Positions 5,239-41,331 of a stretch of DNA of 64,000 nt are shown in pieces (positions within the stretch are counted from its first letter, which is position 1; every line of letters begins with the position of its first letter). Origin of the DNA: an uncultured Eubacteriales bacterium (GTDB lineage Bacteria > Bacillota > Clostridia > Christensenellales > Aristaeellaceae); NCBI GenBank assembly GCA_902764285.1, contig CACWVN010000022.1, positions 1,446-65,445 on the forward strand. The letters run 5' to 3'. The notes below the pieces were generated by a model. The model was not told where the DNA came from, did not search any database, and was given only the letters and a program-made list of their open reading frames with translations. A program made the translations under genes and the position numbers.

Positions 5239-5808
5239 TCAGGCAAGCAGCCAGTCCACCATCTCGTCGGCGGCCTTCAAGTCTTCAGGCTTCTCCATGA
5301 TGCTGCCGGGAACGTTCGCATCACCTGCTACATGGGCTTTGTAGTCGCGGAATCCGGCGGTAGCAAAGCTCTTCAGATTGGTGTCCACCATCTGTGTGTA
5401 CACATCAACCGGGCCGAAACCGGCAAAGAAGTATCCGCCGAGCTTCTTGTCCTTACGTCCTGCCATGGAGAAATCGGGCTGGGTGAAGTCCATGAAGGAG
5501 TAGGTACGGTCGAGGAACGCCTTGAGCTGAGCGGGGAACTGATCCCAGTGCACAGGCGCAAGGATCAACATAGCGTCACAGGAATCGATCTCCGGGATCA
5601 GGGCGGTGAAATCATCCTTCTGGATGCAGTTGGGGGTATGCTGGCGCTTGCAACCGTCGCAGGCAAGACATACACGGACGTCTTTCTCACCAATATTGAA
5701 TGTGGTGACTTCCGCCTTGCCCTGAAGCTGCTCGGCGATGCGGGCCTCCAGCGCATAGGAATTACCCTTTCTTCTCTTGCTGCCGTTGACGATCAAAATC
5801 TTCTTCAT
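5239..5808 (-). CDS. flavodoxin-like fold protein (NADPH-dependent FMN reductase or iron-sulfur flavoprotein type)
   Basis: Starts MKKILIVNGSKRRKGNS, followed by CLACDGC cysteines. It is co-directional with the Rrf2 gene 6 nt upstream. Confidence 0.65.
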   Translation of the reverse strand: MKKILIVNGSKRRKGNSYALEARIAEQLQGKAEVTTFNIGEKDVRVCLACDGCKRQHTPNCIQKDDFTALIPEIDSCDAMLILAPVHWDQFPAQLKAFLDRTYSFMDFTQPDFSMAGRKDKKLGGYFFAGFGPVDVYTQMVDTNLKSFATAGFRDYKAHVAGDANVPGSIMEKPEDLKAADEMVDWLLA

Positions 5809-5814
5809 GATAGA

Positions 5815-6273
5815 TTACTCCTTTTCTTCATTCGATTCATTATTGACTGCCTGCCTCGTGTCTTCCACGATATCGGCAAGCGTTGTGGATCTGAGTTTCT
5901 CTTCCATAGCTTTCTGTGCATCAATGAGACGCTGATCCAACACCTTATGGATGTTTCTGCCCACAGGGCAGTCCGGATTCGGCTGCTCATGGAAATGGAA
6001 AAGGCCCTCCTCCGTATCTACACTGCCAACGGCTTTGTAGATGTCGTAAAGCGTGATCTCATCAAGCCGCTTTGTAAGCTCTGCGCCGCTGCTGCCACGC
6101 TGCGTCTGCACAATACCGGCTTCCCGTAACTGTGAAATGACTGTGCGGACGATGACAGGATTCACCCCGATGCTTCCGGCGAGGAATTCACTGTTCACCC
6201 GATCCATATCCTTGAAGTAGTCGATGGCCGTGATGATGTGAACCCCGATTGTAAATTTGCTTCCGATCTGCAT
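5815..6273 (-). CDS. Rrf2 family transcriptional regulator
   Basis: The N-terminal winged-helix region (FTIGVHIITAI...LAGSIGVNPVIVRTVISQLREAGIV) is typical of Rrf2/BadM regulators. Confidence 0.8.
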   Translation of the reverse strand: MQIGSKFTIGVHIITAIDYFKDMDRVNSEFLAGSIGVNPVIVRTVISQLREAGIVQTQRGSSGAELTKRLDEITLYDIYKAVGSVDTEEGLFHFHEQPNPDCPVGRNIHKVLDQRLIDAQKAMEEKLRSTTLADIVEDTRQAVNNESNEEKE

Positions 6274-6311
6274 TTTTCACCTCCACACATATTTTATCAG
6301 CTGACGGTTGT

Positions 6312-6340
6312 AATATATCACATTACAGCTAAGTTGTCAA
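6312..6340 (-). promoter_or_regulatory. sigma-A type promoter of the Rrf2 operon with an overlapping inverted repeat
   Basis: On the minus strand there is TTGACA (6335-6340), a 17-nt spacer, then TATATT (6312-6317). The TGTAAT-N7-ATTACA palindrome overlaps the -10 element. Confidence 0.45.
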
Positions 6341-6452
6341 TACCTATATTACATCTTTTGCAAAAAAAAGAAAGTTCTCAACCAACAGAATGGAATGTGC
6401 TTTTCCGAAGGCTCGAACGAGCTCTTTTTGCCCGAAAAACGAGCCCTCGCCA

Positions 6453-7650
6453 TTATGCCGCTGCCACCCGTATCAAAGACGTAGTGCAGTTTTCGAGGAA
6501 GGTCAGCGAGGCCAGTTTGTCCTGGAAGGCAGCCAGCTTCTGCTTGCGAGTGCGCTCTACGCCAATGGCCTTGATCTCGGCAAATTCCGCTTTGAGTCCG
6601 TCTAGGAATAAAGGATCGATGACCTTGTGGATGTTCTCAATGGAGGTATAGTGCATGCCGCCCTTGCGTCGGGTTTCCGGGTTCAGGGTGGATTCAAATA
6701 CCGCGCCAAAGATGGTTGGGCTGATCTCCGACCAGTCGAAGTCCTTGGAGGCCTTGGTCAGCAGCAGGTCGAAGATTTCCTCGTTCAGCGCGGGAATCTC
6801 GATGTTTTCATCGGAAAACAGGCCGCCGTTCACATAGGGGAACGCTGCCAGCTCCGGGTCGTCCTCCGCGAGATAGGGGTCTCGTGCGTGCTCGTCCTGA
6901 TCGAGCACCTTGAACAGGTCGATCAGTGCGCGGCGGGCGTTTTTCAGCCCGCGGTGCTTCATGTAATCGTGGAACATCAACCGCTTGCCAAAGATGCCCG
7001 CGTCCTCCGCGTACAGGCAGAACACCAGCCGCACGCACAGCGCGTTCAGGCTCTTTTGCGCGCGCGCTCTCCGGGTCCTTGTACTGCTTGTAGAAGGCGT
7101 CGTACAACCGCCCCACCAGCTCGCCGGCCTTGATGGAGATTTCCATTTCCTTCTTGAGGTTCTCGCTGCCAGTGTCCACCAGGAAGCTGAGACGGTGGTA
7201 TTCCTTTTCCAGGTCGCTGAGCTTCACGATCTCCGGCTCAGCGTTGGGCTGGTTCATGTTGTGGATGTGGAATTCCTGGAAGTTGGAGACCACGATCCAG
7301 CGCGGGTTCATGTTGTGGGGCAAGAGACCCGCGTAGCGCCGCGCCTGCTGGAAGGGTGAGAGTAGGCTGCCATCGCTCTGCCTATATCCTTTTTTCAGGT
7401 CAACATCGAGGCTCTTCTGCTCAATCAGCACGCTAGTTGCGTGTATGTAGCCGTCAATGAAGATCGTCGTGCCGGTCTGGTCATTCTTGACCTTGTACTC
7501 AAAGGAAATCTATTTCTCCGGAGATTCCACACCATAGACATCATGAAGAAGCTGACGCCAGAAATTCTGAGCATCTTGTTTCTCGTCTCCACGGTTAATC
7601 CAATCAGCTACAAATTGTTTTGCAGCATTCCGCTGCCGAACGTTATCCAT
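6453..7650 (-). pseudogene. MmeI-family type IIL restriction-modification enzyme, N-terminal remnant (in-frame stop, frameshift, 3' truncation)
   Basis: The translation parallels the MmeI N-terminal region (RLVFCLYAEDAGIF, LAAFPYVNGGLF, DWSEISPTIFGAVFES, MHYTSIENI, LASLTFL). It breaks off just before the expected DPACGxGNFL SAM motif. There is a TAG stop near 7511 and a frame change near 7058-7067. Confidence 0.8.
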
Positions 7651-7746
7651 GATCGCACCGCCTCTGCGAGTTGTGTGATTCCATTATAACTGAATCAAGG
7701 GGTTGAAGCAAGACATTTGGTAATTTGACACACAGACTCTAACCCT

Positions 7747-8064
7747 CTAGATATTCTCCGATGATAAAAAGCTTCGAACATAGCTTGAAGAATCCCCCTT
7801 TGCACCAGTCCCGATTGGCCTAAATAGCCATGAGTTATCTTCCTTAATAAACTCACATAAATTCATAATCTCTGTTGCCGGGAGGTTTTTGAATAAGAAT
7901 GGTTCAATCCGCCAAGGACCAAAGTTTGTAAACATATGGAAATGGTGCAATTGAGCAAAGCATTGTTGCCTACTGATCGCATCATAGATATATGCAAATA
8001 CTTGTATCCGTTTTGTGCTTGTCTTCACTTTTTTAAGCGTAATGATGATGCTATCATCTACCAA
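7747..8064 (-). pseudogene. TerD-like domain, C-terminal fragment
   Basis: AT-rich 105-aa ORF. The pattern KRIQVFAYIYDAISRQQCFAQL ... WLFRPIGTGAKGD resembles the last half of TerD-family stress proteins, and no N-terminal half is found upstream. Confidence 0.35.
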
Positions 8065-10641: not shown

Positions 10642-10970
10642 ACGATAGATCGAAAAGGAGGCAAACACCATGAAGAAACTGCTTACCGTACTGCTGATCG
10701 TTGCAATGCTTTTCAGCGCTCTTACCGCGCTCGCGGAGGAGGCGGATACTACCCTAAACCTTTCCGACATCGGCATGTTTTCCGCGGGCGGCACGGTGAC
10801 CGAACCCGTGGAGGGCGAGTACGACCCGACCCAGAACTGGATGGACGTGAACCGCCCAGGCAACACCGCCCATGTGGATCACGCCAACGTGCTCTACATG
10901 ACGCCTGCCAAGGACAACGGCAACCCCATCGTGTACCTGCACGGCTACGGCCAGAGTCGCATGGGCTGGC

Positions 10971-11059
10971 AAGGCAACCCTGCCGCTGGCAGGGTTGTCC
11001 CAGCCTGAAAGGCTGGGATGGCGCGTCACGATTCATAGAATCGGGACGTGCCACCTGAC
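10971..11059 (+). repeat. triple-hairpin element A
   Basis: AAGG; CAACCCTGCC-GCT-GGCAGGGTTG; CCCAGCC-TGAAA-GGCTGGG; 7-nt spacer; GTCACGATTC-ATA-GAATCGGGAC; tail GTGCCACCTG. Confidence 0.8.
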
Positions 11060-11235
11060 ACGCCGGACGGGCGCGACGGCTGGGCCCAGATGTTCCTGCG
11101 CAACGGCCACGCCGCCTATCTGGTGGATCAACCCGGACGCGGCGAGGCGGGCGCGGCGGCCTCCATGACCACGGACGGCTTCCTGGACGCCTGGGCCGAG
11201 GATTCCAAGGACTACAAGCCCGGTGACCAGGCCAG

Positions 11236-11326
11236 AAGGCGCGAAACCGAAGGTTTCGCGGTCTGGCGCATGGCGCCAGACTGGCTTGGCTGAATCGGAG
11301 ATTCAGGCAAGCCACCGCACACCCAT
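11236..11326 (+). repeat. triple-hairpin element B
   Basis: AAGG; CGCGAAACC-GAA-GGTTTCGCG; GTCTGGCGC-ATG-GCGCCAGAC; TG; GCTTGGCTGAATC-GGA-GATTCAGGCAAGC; tail CACCGCAC. Confidence 0.8.
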
Positions 11327-11821
11327 TTCCGCATCGGGCGCGTGGCCCCGGAGCGCTACGAGGGCAGTCAGTTCCCGGAGGGTGAGGCGGCGCAGGACCA
11401 GTTCTTCCGCCAGATGACGCCCAACACTACCACCTTCGACATGGCTAAGTCCGCCGCCGCGGTGTCCGCGGTGCTGGCGGAGGTGAAGGAACGCACCGGC
11501 AACAAGCCCATCTTCATCACCCATTCTCAGGGCGGCGCGGTCGGCTGGGACGTGGATGTAGAGAACATCAGCGCCATCATCGCCATCGAGCCCGGCGGAG
11601 CGCCCGAGGTGGACAGCGAGCAGTACAACAGGCTGCTGGAGGCTAAGATCCCGATCATCTTCTATTTCGGTGACTACATGGAGAACGGTCCCGAGGACAT
11701 CATGTCCAGCGGCTTCTGGAGCGGCATCAAGGCCGGTTCCTTCGCCTTCGCCGAGGCCTACAACGCCGCGGGCGGCGACGCCACCGTCATCGACCTGCCG
11801 GCCATCGGCATCACCGGCAAC

Positions 11822-11908
11822 ATGCGGTGCCGCGTCTCAAATCTCTGATTTGAGCCGTGGCAGTCTGGCCTTCGGCCAGACCAACCTTGCCTTTGGCAAG
11901 GTTGCCTT
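11822..11908 (-). repeat. triple-hairpin element C (inverted relative to A, B and D)
   Basis: Plus strand reads CTCAAATC-TCT-GATTTGAG; 8-nt spacer; GTCTGGCC-TTC-GGCCAGAC; CAACCTTGCC-TTT-GGCAAGGTTG; CCTT. The reverse complement gives the same AAGG / hairpin a / hairpin b / spacer / hairpin c / ACGCGGCACCGC order. Confidence 0.8.
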
Positions 11909-11993
11909 CACTTCATGTTCCAGGAGCTGAACAACCGGGAGATCGCCGACCACATCGAGAACTGGCTGGGCGAGCACGGCCTGAATTGATACG

Positions 11994-12800
11994 ATGGCAG
12001 AAAAGATAATGGCTCTACTGACAGCACTCATTCTGATAGCTTCCTTCGCGCTTGCGGAGGGGGCTGTCACCACGGGAAGTGTTGAGGATCGAGGCTTCGT
12101 GCTGAACAACGTGCTGCACGACCCTGAGCGCGAAGACATTCACTTCAGTCTGTATGTCCCCGAAAGCTATGACAGCTCGCAGCCCGTGCCGCTGTACGTC
12201 GCGCTGCCGGGCTGGGAGGGGCTGTACTTCCAGGACGTGGGCGCGGACCTGAAATGGGAGACGATGCCCTTCGCCGCACGGGAATACGACCCGGACATGA
12301 TCATCGCCTCCGCACAGTTGAATGACTGGGGCATGACCTCCGCGCAGGATGCCGTCGCGCTTACAGAATATCTGATGAGTGCCTACAGCATCGACCCGAA
12401 CCGCGTCTACCTGAGCGGCTATTCCGGCGGCGGGGAGACGGGCTCCCTCGTCATGGAGCTGCGCCCGGAGCTTTACGCGGCCTACCTGATGATGGCCTCA
12501 CAATGGGACGGGGGGTTGGAGCCGCTGGCGGAGGCCCGGACCCCGGTCTACATGATCATCGGCGAGGACGACAGCTACTATGGCTCCGAGTCCCTGAAAA
12601 ACGCCTACGCCGAGCTTCACACGTTGTATGAGACAAAAGGACTTTCAGACGCGGAGATCGACGACATTCTGGTATTGAATGTCAAGGATGCCGACTGGTT
12701 CAAAGAGCGTGGTATTTCCGACCAGCACGGCGGCGGAATGGCCTTCCCGGAGGAACCGGGGCTGCTGGAATGGTTTTTCTCGAAGACAAAGAAAGGATGA
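11994..12800 (+). CDS. secreted alpha/beta hydrolase (esterase/depolymerase type)
   Basis: Signal peptide followed by a GYSGG nucleophile elbow. Confidence 0.7.
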   Translation: MAEKIMALLTALILIASFALAEGAVTTGSVEDRGFVLNNVLHDPEREDIHFSLYVPESYDSSQPVPLYVALPGWEGLYFQDVGADLKWETMPFAAREYDPDMIIASAQLNDWGMTSAQDAVALTEYLMSAYSIDPNRVYLSGYSGGGETGSLVMELRPELYAAYLMMASQWDGGLEPLAEARTPVYMIIGEDDSYYGSESLKNAYAELHTLYETKGLSDAEIDDILVLNVKDADWFKERGISDQHGGGMAFPEEPGLLEWFFSKTKKG

Positions 12801-12806
12801 TATGAA

Positions 12807-13346
12807 ATGAAGAAGATTATCGCTGTAATGCTTATGTGCCTGCTCCTCGTTCCCGCCGCCCTGGCGGAGAACGCCATCGTCGTATACTTCTCCGCCACCG
12901 GCACGACCGAACAGATTGCCAATGGCATTGCGGCACAGACCGGCGCCGATATGTTCCCCATCGAGCCCGTGGTGCCCTACACCGACGACGACCTGAACTG
13001 GCGCGACCCCGATAGCCGGGTCTGCGTGGAGCACGAGGCTGGTGAGGCGCCGGTGGAACTGGTGTCCGTGGAGGTGCCCAGCTGGGCGGATTACGATACC
13101 GTGTACATCGGCTATCCCATCTGGTGGCAGGACGCCTCCTGGGTGATGGACAATTTCGTGACCGCCAACGACTTCACCGGCAAGACGGTGATCCCCTTCT
13201 GCACCTCCCAGGCCTCCGGTTATGGCGAGAGCGGTGAGCGCCTGGCCGCGAAGGCCGGAACGGGAAACTGGATCGTCGGCGGAAATTTCTTTGGCGAAGC
13301 CGCCGATGAGGAGATCTCTGAGTGGCTGAACGGATTAGAGAAGTGA
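12807..13346 (+). CDS. flavodoxin with an N-terminal signal peptide
   Basis: MKKIIAVMLMCLLLVPAALA followed by VVYFSATGTTEQIA and YPIWWQDASW flavodoxin motifs. Confidence 0.7.
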   Translation: MKKIIAVMLMCLLLVPAALAENAIVVYFSATGTTEQIANGIAAQTGADMFPIEPVVPYTDDDLNWRDPDSRVCVEHEAGEAPVELVSVEVPSWADYDTVYIGYPIWWQDASWVMDNFVTANDFTGKTVIPFCTSQASGYGESGERLAAKAGTGNWIVGGNFFGEAADEEISEWLNGLEK

Positions 13347-13365
13347 GCATGAAGGGGGTTATGTC

Positions 13366-13998
13366 GTGAAGAAATCAAAAGCGCTTCTATTCATCGTTCT
13401 CATGTTGAGCGTGCCTCTTTCCGCCATGGCGGAGAGCCTGGGCAATTCCATCATCATCTACTTTGACTACAGCGAGAACATCGTCACCGACGGTCTGGAC
13501 GTGGACGCCGTCAGCTCGGCCAGCGTTGCAGAGGGCCCGGGCGTGAGGGATATCGGCAATCTGCTGGTGATGGTCGACCTGATCGAACAGCGCTCCGGAG
13601 CTGCGATCTATCCGCTTCATATCACGGAAAAGTACGCGCCGATGTACATGGACATGGTGGACGGCGCGCGTGCCGACAAGGAGAACGACCGGCAGTTCAC
13701 CTTTGAGGAATCCCTGCCGGACCTGTCGGACGTGGACACCGTGTTCTTCGGTTCTCCCATCTGGTGGTATGACATGCCCCAGCCCGTGGTCAACTTCTTC
13801 CAGCAGGTCGACCTGTCCGGCAAGCGCTTCATGTATTTCAGCATCAACCGCGGCAGCGGCAACAGCGGCGTCATCGAGCGCCTCAAAGAGTTCCAGCCCG
13901 GGCTGACCGTGGCGGCGGAATACTCCCTGGACGCCATGCAGACCAACGAAAGCGCTGCCGAAGAGTTCAACGCCTGGCTGGACTCCCTCAGCCGATAA
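13366..13998 (+). CDS. flavodoxin-like protein with an N-terminal signal peptide
   Basis: GTG start, signal peptide MKKSKALLFIVLMLSVPLSAMA, and an SPIWWYDMPQPV motif. Confidence 0.65.
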   Translation: MKKSKALLFIVLMLSVPLSAMAESLGNSIIIYFDYSENIVTDGLDVDAVSSASVAEGPGVRDIGNLLVMVDLIEQRSGAAIYPLHITEKYAPMYMDMVDGARADKENDRQFTFEESLPDLSDVDTVFFGSPIWWYDMPQPVVNFFQQVDLSGKRFMYFSINRGSGNSGVIERLKEFQPGLTVAAEYSLDAMQTNESAAEEFNAWLDSLSR

Positions 13999-14001
13999 TT
14001 C

Positions 14002-14949
14002 ATGAAGAAGCTGATGATATGGCTGGCGCTGCCAGCAATGATTTGTGCGCTATTCATGATGGCGGAGGCAGAACCGATGATCTGGGACGAGAATACGGGC
14101 ATCAATGAAGTGATTGCCTACTCCGGCTTCGGGGACTGGGGACGGCTGATCTTCCCGGTGGACGAGGGCTACTACAGCGGCAGCACGCTCAAGGACCTGC
14201 GCCTGACCTGGTACAGCAACATTCAGCCCGCAAAGACGGTGGAGATCGTCAATTACTTCAAAGAAATGGTCGACGTCGGCGAGACAGTTTTCTACGACAT
14301 CTACACCGACGCGGAGAAGGCCGCTGATCCATGGAAGGCGGACACAGGACTGTTCTTCTTCCGAGGCAATCCCGGCGCGAAGTTCGCCATCTGCAACGCG
14401 GGCGGCGGGTTTGCCTACGTCGGTGCCATGCACGACAGCTTTCCCCACGCGCTGGAGCTGAGCAGGAAGGGTTACAACGCCTTTGCGCTGATCTACCGCC
14501 CCGGCGCGCAGACCGCCTGCGAGGATTTGGCGCGGGCCATCGCGTTCATCCACGAGCACGCGGATGAGCTGGAAGTGGATGTCAGCGACTACTCCCTCTG
14601 GGGCGGCAGTGCGGGCGCTCGAATGGCGGCGTGGCTGGGCAGCTACGGCACGGCGGCCTTTGGCGAGGCGGAATATCCCCGCCCCGGCGCGGTGATCATG
14701 CAGTACACCGGCCTCGGCGAGGTCTACGGCAACGAGCCGCCCACCTACAACTGTGTGGGCACCAATGACGGCATCGCCAGCTACCGCACCATGGAAAGGC
14801 GTATCGCGACAATCCAGGGCAACGGCACCGACGCCATGATCGAGGTGTTCCCCGGTTTGTCCCACGGCTTCGGACTGGGCACCGGCACCGTGGCCGAAGG
14901 CTGGATCGACAACGCGGTTTCCTTCTGGGAAAGAAATATGAATCCATAA
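14002..14949 (+). CDS. alpha/beta hydrolase
   Basis: Hydrophobic N-terminus and a GGSAGA nucleophile elbow, in the same operon-like array as its neighbours. Confidence 0.7.
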   Translation: MKKLMIWLALPAMICALFMMAEAEPMIWDENTGINEVIAYSGFGDWGRLIFPVDEGYYSGSTLKDLRLTWYSNIQPAKTVEIVNYFKEMVDVGETVFYDIYTDAEKAADPWKADTGLFFFRGNPGAKFAICNAGGGFAYVGAMHDSFPHALELSRKGYNAFALIYRPGAQTACEDLARAIAFIHEHADELEVDVSDYSLWGGSAGARMAAWLGSYGTAAFGEAEYPRPGAVIMQYTGLGEVYGNEPPTYNCVGTNDGIASYRTMERRIATIQGNGTDAMIEVFPGLSHGFGLGTGTVAEGWIDNAVSFWERNMNP

Positions 14950-14966
14950 AGAGGGGGAGCATCAAC

Positions 14967-15329
14967 ATGAAAGAACAGGTTTTGAAGCAGTCTCAGGTAT
15001 TCTGGAAGGGGCTTGAAAGGGCCGATTCGGCGGCCATGCGTTCTGTGTGTGACGATAAGTGCATCTTTGTTCATATCGGCGGGAACTGCGATCTGGATAA
15101 GGAGATGGAAGCCTTTGAACAGAAGGTTTTCCAGCCCACAAAGATCACCCTGCACGGCCAGGAAGCCCGCCTGTTCGGCGACGTGGCCATCGTCATCAGC
15201 GACGTGGACTACGGCCTGCTGCTGGGCGGCCAGCCCACAACCCATCATTTCACCACGACGGAGGTTTTCCAGAAACAGGGCGACGAGTGGAAGCTGATCC
15301 AGTTCACTTTCACGGCCCTGGTGCATTGA
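14967..15329 (+). CDS. NTF2-like (SnoaL/DUF4440-type) protein
   Basis: 120-aa ORF whose size and sequence pattern are typical of nuclear transport factor 2 family proteins. Confidence 0.5.
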   Translation: MKEQVLKQSQVFWKGLERADSAAMRSVCDDKCIFVHIGGNCDLDKEMEAFEQKVFQPTKITLHGQEARLFGDVAIVISDVDYGLLLGGQPTTHHFTTTEVFQKQGDEWKLIQFTFTALVH

Positions 15330-15337
15330 GGCGCGAT

Positions 15338-16074
15338 ATGGACAGACCAAAGATCATCTGCCACATTCTGCAAAGCGTGGACGGAAACATCGACGGCGAC
15401 TTCTTCACCCTGCCTGAACTGAGCCCCGCGTACCGGGCGTTTTCCCGCATCCGGGAAGAATTCGCCTGTGATGCCGTTATCAGCGGGGCGACGACTGCCG
15501 CGGAGATCTATCGCGGCAGATTCGTGGACAAACTGCCGACGAGCTCCGAACGCTGGCCCCGCACGGACCGGAAAGCCGCAAGCGCGGAGAAGTACGCAGT
15601 TGTCATCGACGGCACAGGCACCGTTCGCTGGGAGAGCGGCAGCGTCGAGCGCAAAGGTTGCTTTGCCTTTGGCAAAGCAAGTCGCTTCGCGACTGGCGAC
15701 GGCTCGATTCTGCGAATCGAGACGCGCCACCGGACGCCTACATCAGCCACCTCCGCAAGGCGGGAGTATCCTATATCTTTGCCGGGAAGGACAGCCTGGA
15801 CCTGGCCCTGGCGGCGCGAAAGCTGAAAGAGTTGTTCGGCATCCAGTCCATGCTGCTCTCAGGCGGCGGGGTCGTGGACTGGTCCTTCCTGCAAGCCGGT
15901 CTGATCGACGAAATCAGCCTGGTCGTTCCCCCGGTGATCGATGGCGGGGTCAGGCTGCCCTCCGCCTTCGACGATTCACCGTTAGCTGTCGGCCACGCGC
16001 CGGTCGCGCTACATCTGACAGATGTGCAACGCATGGAAGGAGACGCCCTGTGGCTTCGTTATGTGCCCACATAG
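15338..16074 (+). pseudogene. RibD C-terminal domain / dihydrofolate-reductase-like protein interrupted by an 80-nt hairpin element
   Basis: The N-terminal part (MDRPKIICHILQSVDGNIDG) is in frame 2 and the C-terminal part (AYISHLRKAGVSYIFAG...LLSGGGVV...LWLRYV) is in frame 1. They are separated by element D. Confidence 0.7.
15654..15733 (+). repeat. triple-hairpin element D
   Basis: AAGG; TTGCTTTGCC-TTT-GGCAAAGCAA; GTCGC-TTC-GCGAC; 9-nt spacer; CTCGATTC-TGC-GAATCGAG; tail ACGCGCCACCGG. Confidence 0.8.
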
Positions 16075-22092: not shown

Positions 22093-22139
22093 CGCGCTGA
22101 TCGTTCTCTTGATTTTCTATCACATCCTTTCGCCGCGCA

Positions 22140-22300
22140 GCGGCGGCCTTTGTTACTTTCTGCGAAAGTAACGCAAAAGCACTTTTGACAGCCTTCGTCC
22201 ATCAAAAGTGCTATTGCGCTCTCCGAGGGGGCTATCAGGGGCGCTGCCCCTGCCGCCTGCGGGCGGCGTACCCCGGCAGGACTGCCCTTTGAAAAGGGCA
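22140..22300 (-). promoter_or_regulatory. candidate oriT / relaxase promoter region rich in inverted repeats
   Basis: GTTACTTTC-TGC-GAAAGTAAC (22152-22172), an 11-bp stem AGCACTTTTGA...TCAAAAGTGCT (22178-22212), and CAGGGGC-GCT-GCCCCTG, all directly upstream of the MobV gene. Confidence 0.4.
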
Positions 22301-24134: not shown

Positions 24135-24790
24135 GTTCTGAACCTCCGATTGTCGAATGGTCGTGTTCTTTTCGTTCAAGTATTGTCAACCTCCAAAAGT
24201 TTTACTTTTCATTTGGCGGCTGCTGTGCTATACTATTCTTGCAACGGGATAGCAAGCGCGGCAGCCGCCGCGCGGACTGTCTTTCAAAACGCTCTTGTCT
24301 GCCAGGACGAGAGCTTTTTGTTTTTATCCGCTGCCTCGTTGATGCTGAAACCAGCTTTGTATTCTCCCATTGCGTCACCTCCTTCCGCTGAGAGGATAGA
24401 CTTATCCCTTGGTGTGATTTTTGCTCCGTTCTTCCCACCCGCATCTGGCCGATGCCCACAGGCTTTCGCCTCCCCGCTCCCGCCGGGCTGTCCCCATTGC
24501 GTGATCCGCTTTCGCGGGCTGTGGCTGGACAGGAGTATCATTATCCCCATCATGCGTCCTGGCGATCAGGCCCTGCCGCGGACCCGACTGGCACCTCCGT
24601 GGATCGCTCCCCGCTTGTCAGCGGATCGTCGCGCCGGGATGCCTTCGCTCGGCATGATGGGAACGTAGGTTGGAGAACCTTATGAAGTTGTCTGTGATGA
24701 TGAACTCTACTGTTCATTATCACAGCTTGCATTATAATGTACATCTGTGTTCATGTCAAGAAGAAATGAGCAGTTACGCACATATTTAAC

Positions 24791-31164: not shown

Positions 31165-32778
31165 ATGACGCGCAAGGAATTACAGAATCTGTTTCCTCCG
31201 GTTCCCGGTCACTTCCTCGACCGCATAGACCAAACCATGGAGGAAATTGAAGCCATGAATACGAATAGCATCAAGAGAATACGCCGGGTGAGCCGCCCGG
31301 TACTGATCGCGGCCATCGTTTTTGCACTGACTGCCGCCACGGCTTTGGCGGCGGTTCTGGGCCACCACGCACTGAAGGACGCGCTGAACGCATCCGGGCT
31401 GGAAGATGTCGCCGAACAGGTAAAGGATATCCAGGCGACAGACGCCTCGGACGGCTTCTGCCTGACGCTGGATGAGGCCGTGTGGGAGGGCGAAAAATTG
31501 TATTTATCCTGCACCGTCGCTGTGCCGGAGGATGGGAATACCTACCTCTATAGCCTGATGCTGCCGACGCTGAACGGCGGGCACGTCCCAAGTAATCTGG
31601 CCATATACTTCGATCAGCCCTTCGGGCCCTTCGTCTACCCCATCGGAGGCGCTTTCCCCACTCAGGCTACGCTGATCCTGCCCCTGGAATCGGATTCAAG
31701 CATGCTGTCAGGTGGGCCGGTGGAGCTTGGGCTCCGGGCAGACTTTTATACTACGAATCGCAAATTAGCTCCCATACCGGATGAAGAAAATATGGATGAG
31801 TATCTGGATGCGACGCGGGACGCCCTCGTCTACAAATCCTCCGACGTCCTCTATTACGCTGAAGGCAGCAACCCCGGCATTCAATTGACCGCTTATCGGG
31901 AGGTAGCCGATATGGACTGGCAGGGAAACGTGGATGGCTGGCTGTCCAGCGGCGCGGAACCGGAGAAAATCGCAGCAACCGGGCTGATCGACCTTCTGTC
32001 CACCCGGGAATTGCAGGTGCCTTTGAGCGAGGACATGCTTTCGGGCACCGTGATGAACAACTTGGATGTCCGTGATTTTACTTGGAAAGACGTAGCTTTC
32101 ACCGTTGAGCGCTTCCGCATGACCCATTTCAGCATGGAGCTGGTGCTGCATGCGGAGCAGAACGGCATTGCCAGGGACAACGCCTCTTGGGATGATAGGG
32201 ATGATGCCGAGCTCCAATTCCCGGAACGCCTGCACAACGCCAGGTTTGAACTGGTGAACGGCGACGGCAGTCCTCTCATGGACATCTACGGTGAGACCTG
32301 CACGGACTGCCGCATTTCGGACGCACCGACGGGCGGCTACACCGTGAAAATCACTGCAGAGGCATTATTTCCTGATGAGCCGGAACCGTTCATACTGTTG
32401 CCGCAGTATTGGGTGTCCGTGGAGAACGAGGACAATGAGAAGGAACTGGTGTCCGATACAGATGATCCCATTGTCACGCTGACGCCTGTGTACAGCGAGG
32501 AAGTCCATGAGACTGAGCTCGAAGAGCAGGAACGGTTTGAAGCCATTCGCGACTGGAAGCAGGGAGATGCAGCACAAACCGTCTACGCCACCGATCAGGG
32601 CAGCTATTATCACTACAAGCCTGATTGCAGTGGCATGATGGGTTCAAAGGCAGTTTCCATTGAGGATGCGCTTGCCGCCGGGAAACCCGCCTGCCCCGTC
32701 TGCATTGGCGGCCACAACAGTCGTGTGAGCACAGTAAATGACTCCGAAGCCTCAGGCCCATGGTCATCAGATAACTGA
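31165..32778 (+). CDS. anti-sigma-like membrane protein with a C-terminal Cys-rich motif
   Basis: Single TM segment (PVLIAAIVFALTAATALAAV), a large extracytoplasmic region and a C-terminal YYHYKPDCSGM...CPVC motif. Confidence 0.55.
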   Translation: MTRKELQNLFPPVPGHFLDRIDQTMEEIEAMNTNSIKRIRRVSRPVLIAAIVFALTAATALAAVLGHHALKDALNASGLEDVAEQVKDIQATDASDGFCLTLDEAVWEGEKLYLSCTVAVPEDGNTYLYSLMLPTLNGGHVPSNLAIYFDQPFGPFVYPIGGAFPTQATLILPLESDSSMLSGGPVELGLRADFYTTNRKLAPIPDEENMDEYLDATRDALVYKSSDVLYYAEGSNPGIQLTAYREVADMDWQGNVDGWLSSGAEPEKIAATGLIDLLSTRELQVPLSEDMLSGTVMNNLDVRDFTWKDVAFTVERFRMTHFSMELVLHAEQNGIARDNASWDDRDDAELQFPERLHNARFELVNGDGSPLMDIYGETCTDCRISDAPTGGYTVKITAEALFPDEPEPFILLPQYWVSVENEDNEKELVSDTDDPIVTLTPVYSEEVHETELEEQERFEAIRDWKQGDAAQTVYATDQGSYYHYKPDCSGMMGSKAVSIEDALAAGKPACPVCIGGHNSRVSTVNDSEASGPWSSDN

Positions 32779-32931
32779 GGTTCCGATAATGTATCATTAT
32801 AGTATTCTCTTTTGGGCTGTTCCATCGTGGACAGCCCTTATTCATCATTATCCTCTTTACATCATATCTTATTTGTGATAGAATACTATCAGTAAAAGCC
32901 AGATTAGCCTGTGATGTGAAAGGAGATCCCT

Positions 32932-33186
32932 ATGATTATCAAGCCCTCTTCTGCGTTGCGGAACAATTACAGCAGCATATCCACCATCGCGAAGGAGACT
33001 CAGGAACCGGTCTACATTACTGTGAACGGCGAAGGTGACGGGGTTTTCATGGACATGGTGGCGTTTGAGCGGCGGGAGCAACTGCTCAACCTGCGAGCGC
33101 GCATCCTTCAAGCAGAGGAAGATCGTCTTCGCGGCGCCAAAACCATGAGCATTTCCGAGGCACGGGAGGCGTTGAGAAAGCAATGA
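32932..33186 (+). CDS. type II antitoxin (Phd/YefM-like)
   Basis: 84-aa ORF (ALRNNYSSISTIAKETQEPVYITVNGEG) with a 4-nt overlap onto the toxin gene. Confidence 0.7.
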   Translation: MIIKPSSALRNNYSSISTIAKETQEPVYITVNGEGDGVFMDMVAFERREQLLNLRARILQAEEDRLRGAKTMSISEAREALRKQ

Positions 33187-33518
33187 GAGTCGAAATCCTC
33201 CCCTCTGCCTGGGAAGGGCTGGCACGGATCAAGTACCGTGTGCAGGCTGATTTCGGTGAGGATGTAGCTCTGAGTGTGGCTAATCGCATCCTTGACAGCT
33301 TGGAACGCTTGGAGCAGTTCCCAGATTCCGGCTCTATGACACCCGACCCTTGGCTGAACAACATGGGCTTCCGCATGGTCATCAGCGACAAGAGGAATGT
33401 ATCCATTTTCCGCAAGGTAGGCGAGAGCATTTTCGTTTACATCATTGCGGACACCCGAACAGAGTACACCAAGGTATTCAAGGATATGTTGTTATCTGAT
33501 CCAGGGGTTATCGGATAG
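33183..33518 (+). CDS. type II toxin (RelE/ParE family)
   Basis: 111-aa ORF, translationally coupled to the antitoxin, with a ParE/RelE-like pattern (LERLEQFPDSG...FRMVISDKRNVSIFRKV). Confidence 0.65.
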   Translation: MRVEILPSAWEGLARIKYRVQADFGEDVALSVANRILDSLERLEQFPDSGSMTPDPWLNNMGFRMVISDKRNVSIFRKVGESIFVYIIADTRTEYTKVFKDMLLSDPGVIG

Positions 33519-33636
33519 TAGACGAAAGTAATAAGCAATTGTAGAAAGAACAAATTGCTTCGATGTATACAAGATATATGAAATAACACTTGAGAGAGCT
33601 AAGGCTGACTACTGGTCATCTGAGGGAGAAAACGTT

Positions 33637-34896
33637 ATGGGAAACTCTCATTCATGGATTCGGAAGATGTATTATATACTTTCTTTATCTATGCTTTTGT
33701 TTATTTGTGGAGCCATAGTATCTATCAGTACTATTCAAACTCGGTTTGAAAAGTGTTGGATTGTTTTCCCTATAATTATTTATCTTGTGCTATATTGTAT
33801 AAAGCATTTTTCAAGAAGAACAAGCCTCTCTCGAATTCCCCTTGAAATAGTTGCGATTCTCGCTTCTATCTGCCTTTTCCTATTTCAAAAAGTGGAAGTT
33901 ATGCAACAATTTATTATTCAACATATTGAAGTGTTGGCCTTTTTCATTATTCTCAATTTCCTATTAAGCATAACATATTTTAAAAAAATAAGCGAGATAG
34001 ATACTATTCCATCTGAGGAAACAAAGGATAACAATCCATTGTTTAATATTTTCTATCTCAACACATCTAAAGCCCATGAAATAGCGATGCTTATTGATAA
34101 TCGTATTATGAAAACAGTTGAAAAAGAGCAGACTTCCGAAGCAATAATAAAACATCAGAATGCTATAAGACTTGGGAAAAGCGACTATCTTGCCTCAAAT
34201 GTTGAATATGCATCCGAGGATAGCACAAAGAAAAGAGTATATGAAAGCTTCGATGTCAAAAACACTAAATCAATAATGCTGAAAAAAATCTATGAAACTG
34301 TTGCAGGAAAAAGAATTAGTCAAGATCTTGGCGTAGGTCAATTAATTCTCTTTAAAGACATCAAACTAAAGCAACTCAATGTAGATGATACTGTGATGAT
34401 ACTTAAAATATTGCAAGAAAGCAAACTAAGGAATCAAGCTAACGATAGTATCGAAATTAACTTTAACAAGATGATGGAGAAAATGCTGGATGATTTTACG
34501 ATTGACTATTCTTTCACTTATTCCATGGGGAATGGAGACAAGAGTCCTTGTCTGATTCAACTACCATATAGATCCATAAGCAACTTTGAAAACGGATACC
34601 AACATAATGATTTACAGTTAGGACAACTCAGTCTAATTGGAATTTATAGAGGCAAAATCGACTTCAAACAACAAGAAAGCATTTCTTCGAGATTTCTCGA
34701 ATTGATATCAGACTCAATTAACCAAGAAATGCAGATAGAGACGCCTGGCATTGGAATGAGGCTAAGTGAAAAGAATACAATAGTAAATCAAGTTCCTTTC
34801 GAGTTTAAGCATAAGAAGCTAACAGAGGAATACCATCTTATTGACGTGATCGCGATAATACAGGAGATTCGTTTCAAGGAGACAAATAATGAGTAA
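33637..34896 (+). CDS. hypothetical protein: four N-terminal TM helices plus a ~300-aa soluble domain (candidate defence-module component A)
   Basis: AT-rich 419-aa ORF with hydrophobic segments at roughly aa 12-34, 40-56, 67-84 and 93-113. I recognise no catalytic motif. Confidence 0.6.
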   Translation: MGNSHSWIRKMYYILSLSMLLFICGAIVSISTIQTRFEKCWIVFPIIIYLVLYCIKHFSRRTSLSRIPLEIVAILASICLFLFQKVEVMQQFIIQHIEVLAFFIILNFLLSITYFKKISEIDTIPSEETKDNNPLFNIFYLNTSKAHEIAMLIDNRIMKTVEKEQTSEAIIKHQNAIRLGKSDYLASNVEYASEDSTKKRVYESFDVKNTKSIMLKKIYETVAGKRISQDLGVGQLILFKDIKLKQLNVDDTVMILKILQESKLRNQANDSIEINFNKMMEKMLDDFTIDYSFTYSMGNGDKSPCLIQLPYRSISNFENGYQHNDLQLGQLSLIGIYRGKIDFKQQESISSRFLELISDSINQEMQIETPGIGMRLSEKNTIVNQVPFEFKHKKLTEEYHLIDVIAIIQEIRFKETNNE

Positions 34897-36475
34897 GAAG
34901 CTATACCTTTACCATCCTGAAAGACTACATGAACTTCAAGGATCTTTGCAAGAATACTCTTTTTGCAGCATTTCCTCATTCATTTATCATTATGAAAGCG
35001 TTGAAAAGCTGATGGCGGAAGGGGACGATATTGATAATATAGTTGTAGATCTTTCAAGTTTGATTAAAGACGGGAATTTCTTTCGAGTTTTCACTGAACG
35101 GTATATTATGGCTCTTGCTGATCAAGGAGAAGAAGTTCATTTCTGCCTTATGCAGGACTTGTTTGATGCCTTTAATAATCAATATCCGTATCTGTTCGAT
35201 AATGAGGATATCGACAAGAAATTCTGTAAGTTTGAAGACTCTCAGATAGAAGACAAGTATCATTTCAAACCTTTTCAACAAGTACCTTTGTATATTTATG
35301 ACGCGCAGGAAATAGTGAATTCCATCATTCATGATAAGCATATAACATCCTTAGCCTGTCTTATTGACGATTGGGAGGGTGTAATCCTAAAATACAATCT
35401 TTCCGATATCATTATGCGATTAATGAAATCCGAGATTGAGTATATTGATATTTCTTCTGCACTTCGAACGATGAAGCTTCGAAGTGATCTAGTTTTTCAA
35501 TTCGAAATCCTTTTTCAGAAGATTGGTGAATCGACAAGTGTAAAGTACTGTGCAGATAGCAGTACTTCGGAAAATGCAATCGTTCTATTTCCTTTTGTTT
35601 TTTCGGAATTATGCGAAATGAGCATGATTGATGTAGCAAATCAAGATGCTCTTGATGAGCCAACCAAAGTTGATATCAATACTCTCGTGCAACAGGTCCA
35701 GCAGCAAGGAGATAAAATCTGTTCATTGCTAAAAGGACATAGTGTTTTTAAGACCGATTTCAGAGAAAGCCTACTGAAATTCTCTTTCTTCAATGTGATG
35801 AAAGAACAGAGTATCTTTTCGATCTTAATCTGTGGGGAATCTGGTATTGGAAAAACCGAGTTTGCTAAAATTGTTTCCAAGATCATTTATCCGGAGGAGT
35901 CATTAATTAAGATAAATTTTGGCAATTATTCAACAGAAGGTGTTCTGAATAGTCTTATCGGTTCGCCTTTGGGATATGTTGGTAGCGAAGAGGGAGGTGA
36001 ACTGATCAATAAAATAGCTTTATCTAGATCGAAAGTTATACTTATTGACGAGTTCGAAAAAGCCACAATGGGTGTATATAATTTCTTCTATGAATTATTG
36101 GAAGATGGTAAATTCACAGATAGGCATGGAATAGAGCATGATTTAAATGGATACATTATCGTGTTTACTTCTAACATGACTCAAAAACAATATCAAAGGC
36201 AAATTCCAGACTCTCTAAAATCAAGGTTTGATATGGTTTACTATTTTATCGAGTTATCACAAGAAGAGAAACAATCCTATATTATTGATACTGCAAATAA
36301 GCTTATTGATAAACTCAACATTCATTTTGGTGTTATAGTAGATATTAAAACAATAGAAAAAGAATTGAACGAACTAACAAAATATAAGAATCTTAGGGAT
36401 ATGAAAAAAGAAATTGAAGGGCTAGTTTTCAGTGCATTTATAAAACGGTTAGATGAGCAATCGAATAAACAATAA
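34889..36475 (+). CDS. AAA+ ATPase with a ClpA/ClpB D2-like module and a ~300-aa unknown N-terminal domain (candidate component B)
   Basis: 8-nt overlap with the upstream ORF. Walker A GESGIGKT (35834-35857), Walker B VILIDEFEKA, and LIGSPLGYVGSEEGGEL and GKFTDRHG...IIVFTSN segments collinear with the ClpB D2 domain. Confidence 0.75.
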   Translation: MSKKLYLYHPERLHELQGSLQEYSFCSISSFIYHYESVEKLMAEGDDIDNIVVDLSSLIKDGNFFRVFTERYIMALADQGEEVHFCLMQDLFDAFNNQYPYLFDNEDIDKKFCKFEDSQIEDKYHFKPFQQVPLYIYDAQEIVNSIIHDKHITSLACLIDDWEGVILKYNLSDIIMRLMKSEIEYIDISSALRTMKLRSDLVFQFEILFQKIGESTSVKYCADSSTSENAIVLFPFVFSELCEMSMIDVANQDALDEPTKVDINTLVQQVQQQGDKICSLLKGHSVFKTDFRESLLKFSFFNVMKEQSIFSILICGESGIGKTEFAKIVSKIIYPEESLIKINFGNYSTEGVLNSLIGSPLGYVGSEEGGELINKIALSRSKVILIDEFEKATMGVYNFFYELLEDGKFTDRHGIEHDLNGYIIVFTSNMTQKQYQRQIPDSLKSRFDMVYYFIELSQEEKQSYIIDTANKLIDKLNIHFGVIVDIKTIEKELNELTKYKNLRDMKKEIEGLVFSAFIKRLDEQSNKQ

Positions 36476-36518
36476 GAATAGAGCAGAGTAAGATGGTTGC
36501 CTTTACTCTGCTCTATTC
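36476..36518 (+). terminator. strong hairpin after the AT-rich module
   Basis: Perfect 16-bp stem GAATAGAGCAGAGTAA ... TTACTCTGCTCTATTC starting directly after the TAA stop. Confidence 0.55.
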
Positions 36519-36599
36519 TACACCACATTTCCACACCGCAACTCACTCAGGGACCCATCTTCGACGGTTTTTAAGAAAATTGGTGTAAATCTGGTGTAG
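36518..36599. repeat. GGTGTA(A/G) repeats, distal end
   Basis: CTACACC at 36518-36524, GGTGTAA at 36582-36588 and GGTGTAG at 36593-36599. The block TTGGTGTAAATCTGGTGTAGTA resembles the one near 19056. Confidence 0.5.
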
Positions 36600-36629
36600 T
36601 AACCGGCCTCTGCCAGTATCATTGTGCCT

Positions 36630-36656
36630 GAAAAGCCCCACACCGCAGGGCTTTTC
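36630..36656 (-). terminator. lysS terminator (element-derived side)
   Basis: GAAAAGCCC-N9-GGGCTTTTC located just downstream of the lysS stop. Confidence 0.55.
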
Positions 36657-36666
36657 GGCCTCCACA

Positions 36667-38133
36667 TCACTCCAGCGGTTTCATCGTCGGGAACAGCAGC
36701 ACGTCGCGGATGCTGTCGGAATTGGTCAGCAGCATCACGAGCCGGTCCACGCCGAAGCCCAGTCCGCCGGTGGGCGGCATGCCGTACTCGTAATCCACCT
36801 GGGCGCGGCTGGCGGGATCCAGCGCCTTGCGCTGGGCCACCTGCTTTTCGAAGCGGCCGCGCTGGTCCAGCGGGTCGTTCAGCTCCGAGAAGGCGTTGCC
36901 GAACTCGGTGGCGTTGATGAAGTACTCGAAGCGCTCGGTGAACATCGGGTCATCGCTCTTGCGCTTGGCCAGCGGGCTGATCTCCACCGGGTAATCGTAG
37001 ATGAAGGTGGGCTGGATCAGCTTTTCTTCCACAAAGGCGTCGAAGAACTCGGCCAGGATCGCGCCGCGGGTGGGCACCTCGGGCAGCTCCACGCCGTGGG
37101 CCTTGGCGGCGGCGATGGCGTCCTCGTCGCTCTTCCAGTCGGCAAAGTCCACGCCGCTGTACTTCTTCACGGCCTCCACCATGGTCAGCCGATCCCAGTG
37201 GCCGATGTCGATCTCGTGGCCCTGGTAGGGGATGACCAGCGATCCACAGACCTTCTGCGTCACGGCTTTCATCATGTCCTCCACCAGATCCATCATGCCG
37301 TGGAAATCGGTGTAGGCCTCGTAGAGCTCGATGGTGGTGAACTCGGGGTTGTGCTTGGTGTCCATGCCCTCGTTGCGGAAGATGCGGCCCACCTCGTACA
37401 CCCGGTCCAGGCCGCCCACGATCAGCCGCTTCAGGTAAAGCTCCGTCTCGATGCGCAGCACCATGTCCATGTCCAGCGTGTTGTGGTGGGTGTAGAAGGG
37501 CTTGGCGGCGGCGCCGATCTCAAACGGCGTCAGGATGGGCGTGTCCACCTCCAGATAGCCGCGGCCATCCAGGAAGGCGCGCAGTTCGCGCAGGATCCGG
37601 CTGCGCTTGACGAAGGTATCCTTCACCTCGGGGTTGACGATCAGGTCGACATAGCGCTGGCGGTAGCGGGTGTCGGTGTCGGTCAGACCGTGGAACTTCT
37701 CCGGCAGCGGGTGCAGGCTCTTGGTCAGCAGCTTCACCTCCGCGGCGTGCACGGAGATCTCGCCGGACTTGGTCTTGAACACCGTGCCGGCCACGCCGAT
37801 GATATCGCCGATGTCGAAATCCTTGAAATCGCGGTAGCTGTCCTCGCCCACGTCGTCCCGGCGGACGTAGATCTGGATCTGGCCGTCCGGATCCATCAGG
37901 TGGGCGAAGCTGGCCTTGCCCATCACGCGGCGGGAGAGCATGCGGCCCGCGATGCGCACAGCCTGTCCCTCCAGGGCGTCGTAATCGGAAATGATCGCGC
38001 CGGAGGTGTGGGTGCGGTCGTAGGTGGTGATCTCGTAGGGGTTGCGGCCCTGTTCGATGAGGGCGTTCAGCTTGTTCAGGCGGATCGCGTCCTGCTCGGT
38101 ATAGCCGGCGGGAGTCTGGTAGATCTGGGCCAT
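36667..38133 (-). CDS. lysS: lysine--tRNA ligase (class II)
   Basis: Full-length homology pattern including the FRNEGMDTKHNPEFTTIELY motif 2 region and YGMPPTGGLGFGVDRL motif 3. Confidence 0.9.
   Translation of the reverse strand: MAQIYQTPAGYTEQDAIRLNKLNALIEQGRNPYEITTYDRTHTSGAIISDYDALEGQAVRIAGRMLSRRVMGKASFAHLMDPDGQIQIYVRRDDVGEDSYRDFKDFDIGDIIGVAGTVFKTKSGEISVHAAEVKLLTKSLHPLPEKFHGLTDTDTRYRQRYVDLIVNPEVKDTFVKRSRILRELRAFLDGRGYLEVDTPILTPFEIGAAAKPFYTHHNTLDMDMVLRIETELYLKRLIVGGLDRVYEVGRIFRNEGMDTKHNPEFTTIELYEAYTDFHGMMDLVEDMMKAVTQKVCGSLVIPYQGHEIDIGHWDRLTMVEAVKKYSGVDFADWKSDEDAIAAAKAHGVELPEVPTRGAILAEFFDAFVEEKLIQPTFIYDYPVEISPLAKRKSDDPMFTERFEYFINATEFGNAFSELNDPLDQRGRFEKQVAQRKALDPASRAQVDYEYGMPPTGGLGFGVDRLVMLLTNSDSIRDVLLFPTMKPLE
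36676..36693. repeat. attR core (inside the current lysS 3' end)
   Basis: Identical 18-mer. lysS now ends ...FPTMKPLE-stop using element-derived sequence. Confidence 0.75.
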
Positions 38134-38164
38134 GTTATTCGTACTCCTCTCGATGGGGGATGGA

Positions 38165-38659
38165 TCAGCGCTTGCGGATGGACAGCACCTTCAGCCGGAT
38201 GATGCCGCCGGGGGTGTTGGCCTCGACGATCTGGCCCACGCGGGCGCCGGTGCCCTTGCCGTCGGTATCGCACAGCGCGATGCCGATGGGCGATTCGTTG
38301 CTGATGAACAGCTTGGCGGGATCGGCCTCGGTGAAGCCCACCATCGTGTATTCGTCCTCTTCATTGTATTCCATGTCCAGCACGCGCACCACGGTGCCCA
38401 GGGAGACGGTGCTGGTATCGGCCACGCTGTCGTCCACAAAGGTGGCGGTGCGCAGCTCGGCCTCGATGCGGGCGATGTTGCCGTAGACCTCGGCCTCCTT
38501 GGCCTTGGCGGCGTCATATTCGGCGTTCTCGCTGAGATCGCCGAAGCCGCGGGCGATCTGGATCTCCTCCGCGACGCGCTTTTTTTCCTCGTTCAGCTGT
38601 TCCAGCTGCTCTTCCAGCTTCTTCTTATCTGTAAAGGTGAGAATGCGACTTTCTGCCAT
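38165..38659 (-). CDS. greA: transcription elongation factor GreA
   Basis: Contains GDLSENAEYDAAKA and a C-terminal ISNESPIGIAL motif. A GGGAGG ribosome-binding site precedes the ATG at 38659. Confidence 0.9.
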   Translation of the reverse strand: MAESRILTFTDKKKLEEQLEQLNEEKKRVAEEIQIARGFGDLSENAEYDAAKAKEAEVYGNIARIEAELRTATFVDDSVADTSTVSLGTVVRVLDMEYNEEDEYTMVGFTEADPAKLFISNESPIGIALCDTDGKGTGARVGQIVEANTPGGIIRLKVLSIRKR

Positions 38660-40357: not shown

Positions 40358-40390
40358 CAGCACGATCCATCGTGCAAGGGGGAGTTTGCC

Positions 40391-41254: not shown

Positions 41255-41265
41255 CGGCAGACGGG

Positions 41266-41302: not shown

Positions 41303-41331
41303 TGCTTTGATCAGGTACGGGAGGTGTTTCC

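Follow-up and report, generated by a model that had tools for sequence, protein, structure and literature searches.

What are the four clusters of small hairpins that interrupt two genes in this stretch of DNA, a 64,000-nt window on contig CACWVN010000022.1 of an uncultured Eubacteriales bacterium? A first-pass annotation of the sequence had described them as a family of triple-hairpin elements with a conserved architecture and compensatory stem changes, all lying within open reading frames (ORFs), and had offered three possible readings: a miniature mobile element of a new type that is recognised by its DNA or RNA structure, a removable intervening sequence, or a translational-bypass cassette. 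Our analysis favours the first of these, based on site polymorphism and on the unrelated genes that serve as targets. The four elements, called A to D here, are likely copies of a small (78-88 nt), non-autonomous, selfish palindromic family whose ~80-base repeats, seemingly undescribed before, reside in uncultured gut and rumen Clostridia. The elements are located as follows.

10971-11055, plus strand: element A, 85 nt; AAGG, hairpin a of 10 bp, hairpin b of 9 bp, T, hairpin c, CACC.
11236-11316, plus strand: element B, 81 nt; the most divergent of the four copies.
11826-11908, minus strand: element C, 83 nt; antisense to the hydrolase gene that hosts it.
15654-15731, plus strand: element D, 78 nt; within a RibD_C gene.

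All four elements share the layout 5'-AAGG, hairpin a, hairpin b, T, long hairpin c, CACC-3'. The stems measure 9-10 bp in hairpin a and 5-9 bp in hairpin b, while hairpin c consists of an inner stem of 6-8 bp and an outer stem with one mismatch or bulge. In element A, hairpin c covers 16 positions including one mismatch and one G.T, and in element C it has the canonical form CTCAAATC/GATTTGAG. The first-pass annotation had placed the elements correctly to within a few flanking bases and had rightly noted their occurrence in either orientation (C on the minus strand, A, B and D on the plus strand). We likewise found the compensatory pairs it had reported in hairpin a (A versus C) and hairpin b (B versus C), and the hairpin c resemblances of A to D and of B to C are present in the sequence. 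Its 3-nt loop size was correct, but its count of 11 loops in 12 was one too low, as with maximised pairing every one of the 12 loops measures 3 nt. RNAfold analysis of A to D gave z-scores of -4.6 to -7.6 relative to dinucleotide shuffles, none of the 200 shuffles being as stable, and a scan of the 64 kb for adjacent perfect hairpins returned triple clusters at A to D only; the shuffled control yielded about one two-hairpin cluster. A covariance model scored A at 80 bits, B at 46 bits, C at 89 bits and D at 82 bits, and a scan of the same 64 kb with its filters off found no fifth copy. Pairwise identity among the four is only 40-67%. Lastly, the interrupted arrangement was found 100% identical in at least nine independent metagenome assemblies, which rules out a planted sequence as well as the assembly artefact that the first-pass annotation had named as a possible source of error.

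To define the wider family, we derived a degenerate pattern from A, C and D and ran it on one-genome-per-species contigs and on Joint Genome Institute (JGI) metagenomes. The contigs gave 28 matches. Seven do not fold as a triple hairpin and are chance hits in other phyla, and the 21 that do fold come from seven uncultured Clostridiales/Clostridia metagenome-assembled genomes (MAGs): RUG14130 (nine copies), RUG14340, RUG14431, RUG14473, RUG13043, Lapin-001 bin9 (four copies) and a Nepal MAG. Eight further true loci were found in the JGI metagenomes. A covariance model (R1), an approach that the first-pass annotation had proposed, recovered every copy found by the pattern, element B, and extra copies, among them a 79-nt variant with GAGG...CGCC ends. 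Together, the pattern scans and the model yielded ~35 copies beyond the window across MAGs and metagenome contigs. The consensus unit is 78-88 nt long and comprises 5'-RAGG (AAGG, GAGG or CAGG), two short perfect hairpins, a long hairpin with a conserved core, and CRCC-3'. Viral contigs (searched with two patterns), phage records and plasmid records contained no copies. A search of a protein collection with concatenated element translations returned a single 78-aa match and missed the known GltB and PheS carriers; it is uninformative on how often genes receive insertions. Full-text literature searches found no description of this family. A weak relative of 96 nt (locus L050, 3406-3501, minus strand; 41 bits) has CGGG...AACC ends, and its first hairpin is branched; situated in a prophage-like region at ~900 nt from a canonical copy, it may represent a more distant subfamily.

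The conserved architecture and covarying stems that the first-pass annotation had seen in four copies extend to the family. Among 19 members, hairpin a is 99.5% paired with changes on both sides at 9 of its 10 pairs, and both sides change at 7 of the 8 pairs of hairpin b. The observed covariation was reached by 0 of 500 shuffles, and the signal was lost when the partners were slid by one to three columns. Hairpin c is conserved across genomes (CTCAAATC-NNN-GATTTGAG), whereas each genome has its own hairpins a and b. Within a single genome, copies share 89-99% identity, and the loops account for most of the differences. Stem pairs are 97% Watson-Crick, with one internal G.T against six A.C, so that the pairing appears DNA-like, with no RNA-type excess of G.U.

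We next consider the two host genes, for which the relevant features are as follows.

10670-11989, plus strand: host gene 1, an alpha/beta-hydrolase (Abhydrolase_6), which A, B and C divide into three ORFs (112, 81 and 168 aa).
15338-16074, plus strand: host gene 2, a RibD_C-family reductase gene that carries D and is also frameshifted in the window.
15733-15734, no strand: junction of a 46-nt deletion relative to loci L003, L005 and L013, beginning 2 nt past the 3' end of D.
L067 (ena:ERZ27280610 k141_1358230), 643-1737: hydrolase allele with C alone.

Alignment with uninterrupted orthologs, which the first-pass annotation had recommended, identifies A to D as insertions: A, B and C are absent from L001 and D is absent from L012. 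Uninterrupted hydrolase orthologs are 356 aa long and up to 94% identical to the window's gene. Relative to L001 (94% identical), the DNA alignment shows a net window excess of +84, +81 and +84 nt at A, B and C. Each of the four insertions is accompanied by one to three changes within 5 nt of its junction. At A, one C is lost 5 nt downstream (TGACCACG -> TGACACG), hence the net +84 from 85 nt. The codons flanking B are altered from TGG TAY to AGG CAC (WY -> RH), and at C one extra base (A in the window, G in L067) brings 83 nt to a net +84. At D, the change is CGA -> CGC.

A, B and C each occupy a stop-containing frame, although other frames of the same elements are open. The in-frame stops are TGA (11006) and TAG in A, TGA (11291) within the stem of hairpin c in B, and TGA (11846), made of one loop base and two stem bases, in C; they lie 35-65 nt inside the elements. 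Since all three elements lie in stop-containing frames, the hydrolase gene of the window is most likely an inactivated pseudogene. Element C adjoins what we take to be the catalytic His (GNS|HFMF) of the hydrolase. The L067 allele carries C at the same site as the window and lacks A and B, and a 1-nt deletion ~240 nt upstream places C in an open frame there. Between these two orthologous copies, the loop of C's hairpin a is inverted from AAA (window) to TTT (L067). A and B were seen in the island allele only while C also occurs without them, and C may predate both. Over the 3' 190 nt around C, the window and L067 differ at 2 positions as opposed to 8% divergence upstream, which indicates that C moved between hydrolase alleles by homologous recombination. 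Three otherwise near-identical ortholog alleles, P0008, P0009 and P0012, have in-frame deletions of ~14, 28 and 19 residues, respectively. The 28-residue deletion of P0009 begins one codon upstream of the site where B inserted (after GDQ), with DQ...DQ repeats on either side. For the gene that follows at 11994-12800, an exact-match look-up returned nothing on record.

Element D behaves differently with respect to the reading frame. RibD_C orthologs are 260 aa with D and 234 aa without it, and in relatives D is in frame, stop-free and adds 26 residues (KGCFAFGKASRFATGDGSILRIETRH). L012 provides a clean 78-nt empty site, which is also empty in the 234-aa orthologs; the empty site spans exactly AAGG to CACC, allowing for the synonymous CGA/CGC difference. 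It is the 46-nt deletion beside D that shifts the RibD_C frame in the window. In assembly L011, a 77-nt deletion (~5746/5747) removes the first 8-9 nt of D together with upstream coding sequence. Both deletions abut D and both break RibD_C, and the hairpins of D may be deletion hot spots. Finally, alleles that elsewhere are ~90% identical hardly differ in D and its flanks, which indicates that D, like C, spread between alleles by homologous recombination.

Where, then, do the other copies sit? We classified copies as genic or intergenic from codon-position GC content and Pfam matches of the neighbouring ORFs. Of 19 MAG copies, about 16 proved to be intergenic and to fall between Pfam-confirmed genes. 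Thus, the claim that the elements lie entirely inside coding sequence holds for A to D but not for the family, and the further claim of a location only within ORFs fails in genomes with a multi-copy family, where most copies are intergenic and form mosaics resembling those of repetitive extragenic palindromic (REP) sequences and bacterial interspersed mosaic elements (BIMEs). For the same reason, the earlier statement that the elements do not fit REP/BIME behaviour cannot be upheld at the level of the family. In RUG14130 and Lapin-001 bin9, the copies are modules of larger mosaics of several hairpin kinds, and whole modules are present or absent between mosaic copies. The RUG14130 mosaic lies at the following positions.

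L015, 1-330; L022, 430-900; L024, 6950-7353: copies of the RUG14130 mosaic, which is also present in L016, L030, L032, L035, L038 and L040.

This mosaic repeat is ~500 nt long and contains many hairpin modules, for example CGCTCAAAATGAATC-NNN-GATTCATTTTGAGCG, with no Rfam match; several of its copies stand at contig ends, and the repeat breaks assemblies. A second, unrelated-looking palindromic mosaic (GGAATCCCCACTGGGGATTCC and others) surrounds the triple hairpin in L017, L020, L037 and L039, all from Lapin-001 bin9. The copy in L037 lies 210 nt downstream of an RNase P RNA gene. In L014, the copy lies 25 nt past a stop codon in the orientation of the gene.

Gene-internal copies were seen 11 times, in seven different genes. 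Those in PheS, GltB and GltD are 84 nt each, in sense orientation, in frame and stop-free, and an 86-nt copy in a phage Minor_capsid_2 gene (L050) is antisense and open in the frame of that gene. Apart from A to C, the gene copies (PheS, GltB, GltD, RibD_C and phage capsid) add 26-28 residues. Alignments of PheS and GltD to PDB structures are interrupted at the insert by ~27-28 residues. The GltD copy in L028 has uncompensated stem mutations that abolish pairing, and its reading frame is kept. Because the gene copies are in frame and stop-free, and because this decayed copy keeps its frame, they would appear to be translated through and read as protein.

Evidence for mobility of the unit itself came from the 79-nt variant, which L015, L022 and L024 carry and which is missing, to the exact base, from L032, L038 and L040 (CAGTTT|element|TTGCGCC). 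Neither at these filled and empty sites nor at those of D is there a target-site duplication. The AAGG and CACC ends are not inverted repeats of one another; terminal inverted repeats are thus absent. Since the variant is exactly present or absent within mosaics without any duplication, the comparison shows the unit to be a discrete, mobile piece.

Based on these results, we propose the following course of events. The folded single strand, and especially the conserved hairpin c, would be the recognition site of an enzyme acting in trans. Our best guess for that enzyme, by analogy and at less than even odds, is an HUH-type single-strand transposase (IS200/IS605 or RAYT-like). Stems would be kept perfect by copying a change in one arm to the other, the loops would drift freely and could invert, and the terminal GG and CC could close a four-way junction. 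In the window, four diverged copies would have inserted in genes that an integrative mobilizable element carries as cargo. With stops in their frames, A, B and C would inactivate the alpha/beta-hydrolase gene. D would add 26 residues to RibD_C, with the 46-nt deletion beside it then breaking the gene in this strain. C and D would have spread between alleles via homologous recombination as well.

Several observations weigh against this proposal. We found no conserved target motif: at nearly every independent site, the left flank ends in a different set of 4 nt. When all ORFs of the fetched loci (~8 kb per locus) were searched by phmmer with IS200 TnpA and E. coli RAYT probes, no transposase turned up near the copies at any true locus; the single match lay in a chance-match locus. 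The window copies do not represent a recent local burst, since they are only 40-67% identical whereas copies within other genomes are 89-99% identical. In addition, all four net insertion lengths (+84, +81, +84 and +78) are multiples of three, for A (85 - 1) and C (83 + 1) only via the 1-nt change near the junction. The chance of this is about 1 in 81 if the lengths are independent, although the pattern was noticed after the fact. Such lengths make no sense for inserts that carry stops, and a simple gene-killing insertion does not predict them. Finally, the ratio of nonsynonymous to synonymous change (dN/dS) between the window hydrolase and uninterrupted alleles is 0.05-0.06, with no decay visible. 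A low ratio is also expected of very recent insertions, and dN/dS is unusable as a test of function after insertion since C moved between alleles by recombination.

The alternative that survives best, although we regard it as unlikely, is that the units are not selfish DNA but serve the host, for example as REP-like transcript stabilisers, terminators or protein-binding sites, with the gene copies as by-products. The placement of intergenic copies, often just downstream of genes (25 nt in L014, 210 nt in L037), is what such a role would look like, as is the conservation of hairpin c between genomes. On the other hand, presence or absence at orthologous sites and insertion in unrelated genes amount to mobility, the hairpins are not followed by a T-run, and the copies of the window lie within genes, where three of them bring in-frame stops.

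The multiple-of-three lengths, with compensating 1-nt changes at A and C, invite a second alternative: that the mRNA loses the elements, which would be small intervening sequences of a new kind, or that the ribosome skips them, and that the interrupted hydrolase is still made. Apart from the elements themselves, the hydrolase has no frameshift or stop, its dN/dS is low, and both ends of each element come together in the compact fold. Yet precise removal or hopping would not need a length divisible by three, and recent insertion, together with recombination around C, accounts for the low dN/dS. In intact genes, some of them essential, the copies have an open frame, the decayed GltD copy keeps its frame, and most family members are intergenic. 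We found no ribozyme or intron match, no splice motif, no codon match between the edges and no excess of G.U of the RNA type. Of the three original candidates, the removable intervening sequence is therefore disfavoured by the in-frame, stop-free copies in PheS, GltB and GltD, and the bypass cassette by these same copies and by the lack of matched take-off and landing codons. Programmed bypass of the T4 gene 60/byp type was rejected separately, as the stops of A to C lie 35-65 nt inside the elements and not directly after a take-off site. In A and C, a 3-nt loop determines, by its sequence or its orientation, whether the in-frame stops exist, and loop inversion would, judging from the sequence, remove them; the stop of B is in a stem. 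We consider it very improbable that removal or bypass occurs, and give just as little credence to a hydrolase that is still expressed, with the elements serving as reversible structure-based switches or being skipped in decoding. Selenocysteine insertion or an altered genetic code was also rejected: the stops, TGA and TAG, are in loops or stems and not upstream of a hairpin, and other genes end in TGA.

A third alternative draws on the surroundings of the elements. Their host genes are cargo of an island that encodes a resolvase, a Tn916-type integrase, Xis, a Mob_Pre relaxase and a DUF3987 protein, and relaxases act on nick sites flanked by hairpins. ERZ28615874, ERZ1038451 and ERZ27280001 are examples of samples with this island. 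The clusters could accordingly be sites of the island's own relaxase, resolvase or integrase, namely oriT-like (origin of transfer) or recombination sites. We rate this slightly lower still, for the family also occurs at chromosomal MAG loci without such genes nearby (in a small sample), alleles of the same island genes exist without the elements, and a hairpin-rich candidate oriT of the island lies elsewhere, at 22131-22267. Lastly, that the elements are chance palindromes or ordinary coding sequence is a notion for which only the GC-rich background speaks, and the fold z-scores, shuffle controls, absence from orthologs and ~35 related copies leave it practically no room.

Additional features of the window are given below.

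22131-22267: intergenic stretch rich in hairpins, with the Mob_Pre relaxase gene on one side and the DUF3987 gene on the other; candidate oriT, unrelated to the triple-hairpin family.
24456-24544, minus strand: Rfam pemK RNA motif, 42.5 bits, above the gathering score, within the mobile island region.
32000-50000: region of composition jumps, with a GC content of 0.35 at 34-36 kb and 0.65-0.71 at 38-50 kb.

These jumps suggest that 32000-50000 is a mosaic of horizontally acquired segments. When L004 (~5517-7835) was compared to L003 from the same island, the LysR gene was 262 versus 285 aa and the first esterase 183 versus 295 aa, with small deletions. Cargo genes of the island are decaying in several strains, and the hairpin family marks such genes on a mobilizable island.

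The family of palindromic inserts that we favour has practical effects, as ORFs are split in annotation and metagenome assemblies are broken at the repeats, several matches being at contig ends. It also offers a tractable case for how hairpin DNA moves without inverted repeats or target duplication, and for how stems stay perfect while loops flip. Rickettsia is the best-known setting for palindromic inserts that sit in frame within genes, some of them essential; the same behaviour is now seen in uncultured Clostridia of gut and rumen, where the three-hairpin unit is compact and easy to model. For specialists in mobile DNA, this is a worthwhile new family and no new principle.

How does the family compare with known systems? 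The first-pass annotation had seen no match to transposable elements of the miniature inverted-repeat kind (MITEs), to integron attC sites or to a recognisable RNA family, and each of these judgements stands. A classical MITE was rejected for want of terminal inverted repeats and target-site duplication. An integron attC site was rejected as there are three separate hairpins and no R-box motifs (RYYYAAC...GTTRRRY) in the sequences read. Rfam searches at gathering and permissive thresholds, covering the window and 20 related loci, left the elements and mosaics unmatched and so ruled out group I and II introns, ribozymes and Rfam RNAs, as the best scores, 19-20 bits, fell short of cut-offs that exceed 40.

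Mitochondrial double-hairpin elements, GC clusters and "byp" elements, reportedly described by Paquin et al. in 2000 and Lang et al. in 2014, are likewise tiny hairpin elements that invade coding regions. The ribosome skips byps via matched take-off and landing codons, whereas the gene copies here would be read through. BOX elements of Streptococcus pneumoniae are intergenic and consist of modules A, B and C that vary in number. As modular Firmicute repeats with stably folding sub-modules and no established route of mobilisation they are similar, but they are not related to our family in sequence or layout. IS200/IS605-derived miniature elements such as Nezha have hairpin ends and are moved in trans by an HUH transposase. 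The hairpin-bearing ends, strand orientation and lack of target duplication are shared. These elements, however, insert 3' of a fixed tetra- or pentanucleotide, while left flanks here are unconserved and our probes gave no TnpA match in the ~8 kb of each family locus.

The two closest parallels are the Rickettsia palindromic elements (RPEs), said to have been reported by Ogata et al. in 2000, and the REP/BIME repeats. RPEs are also short palindromic repeats found both between genes and within protein-coding genes, where they form in-frame, stop-free peptide inserts in conserved and even essential proteins (here PheS, GltB, GltD, RibD_C and the capsid protein), and their mobilising enzyme is unknown. 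They differ in belonging to another phylum without any sequence relation, so that the likeness is one of analogy and not of membership, and in being ~100-150 nt long as opposed to 78-88 nt with a fixed three-hairpin layout and RAGG/CRCC ends; moreover, three of the four window copies (A to C) break the reading frame. RPEs are also discussed in PMC1779305. REP elements are GTAG/CGTC-tagged palindromes with RAYT transposases (PMC3733652). Like our family, REP/BIME repeats start with a 5' tetranucleotide followed by a hairpin, are oriented, multi-copy and mostly extragenic, form multi-motif mosaics, and have neither inverted terminal repeats nor target duplications. A REP is, however, a single imperfect palindrome of 20-40 bp with a GTAG/CGTC tag in place of AAGG, GAGG or CAGG, the three-hairpin unit is 2-3 times longer with some copies inside genes, and no RAYT gene lies next to any copy in the sampled ~8-kb loci. 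Within genes the family behaves like RPEs, and between genes like REP/BIME mosaics.

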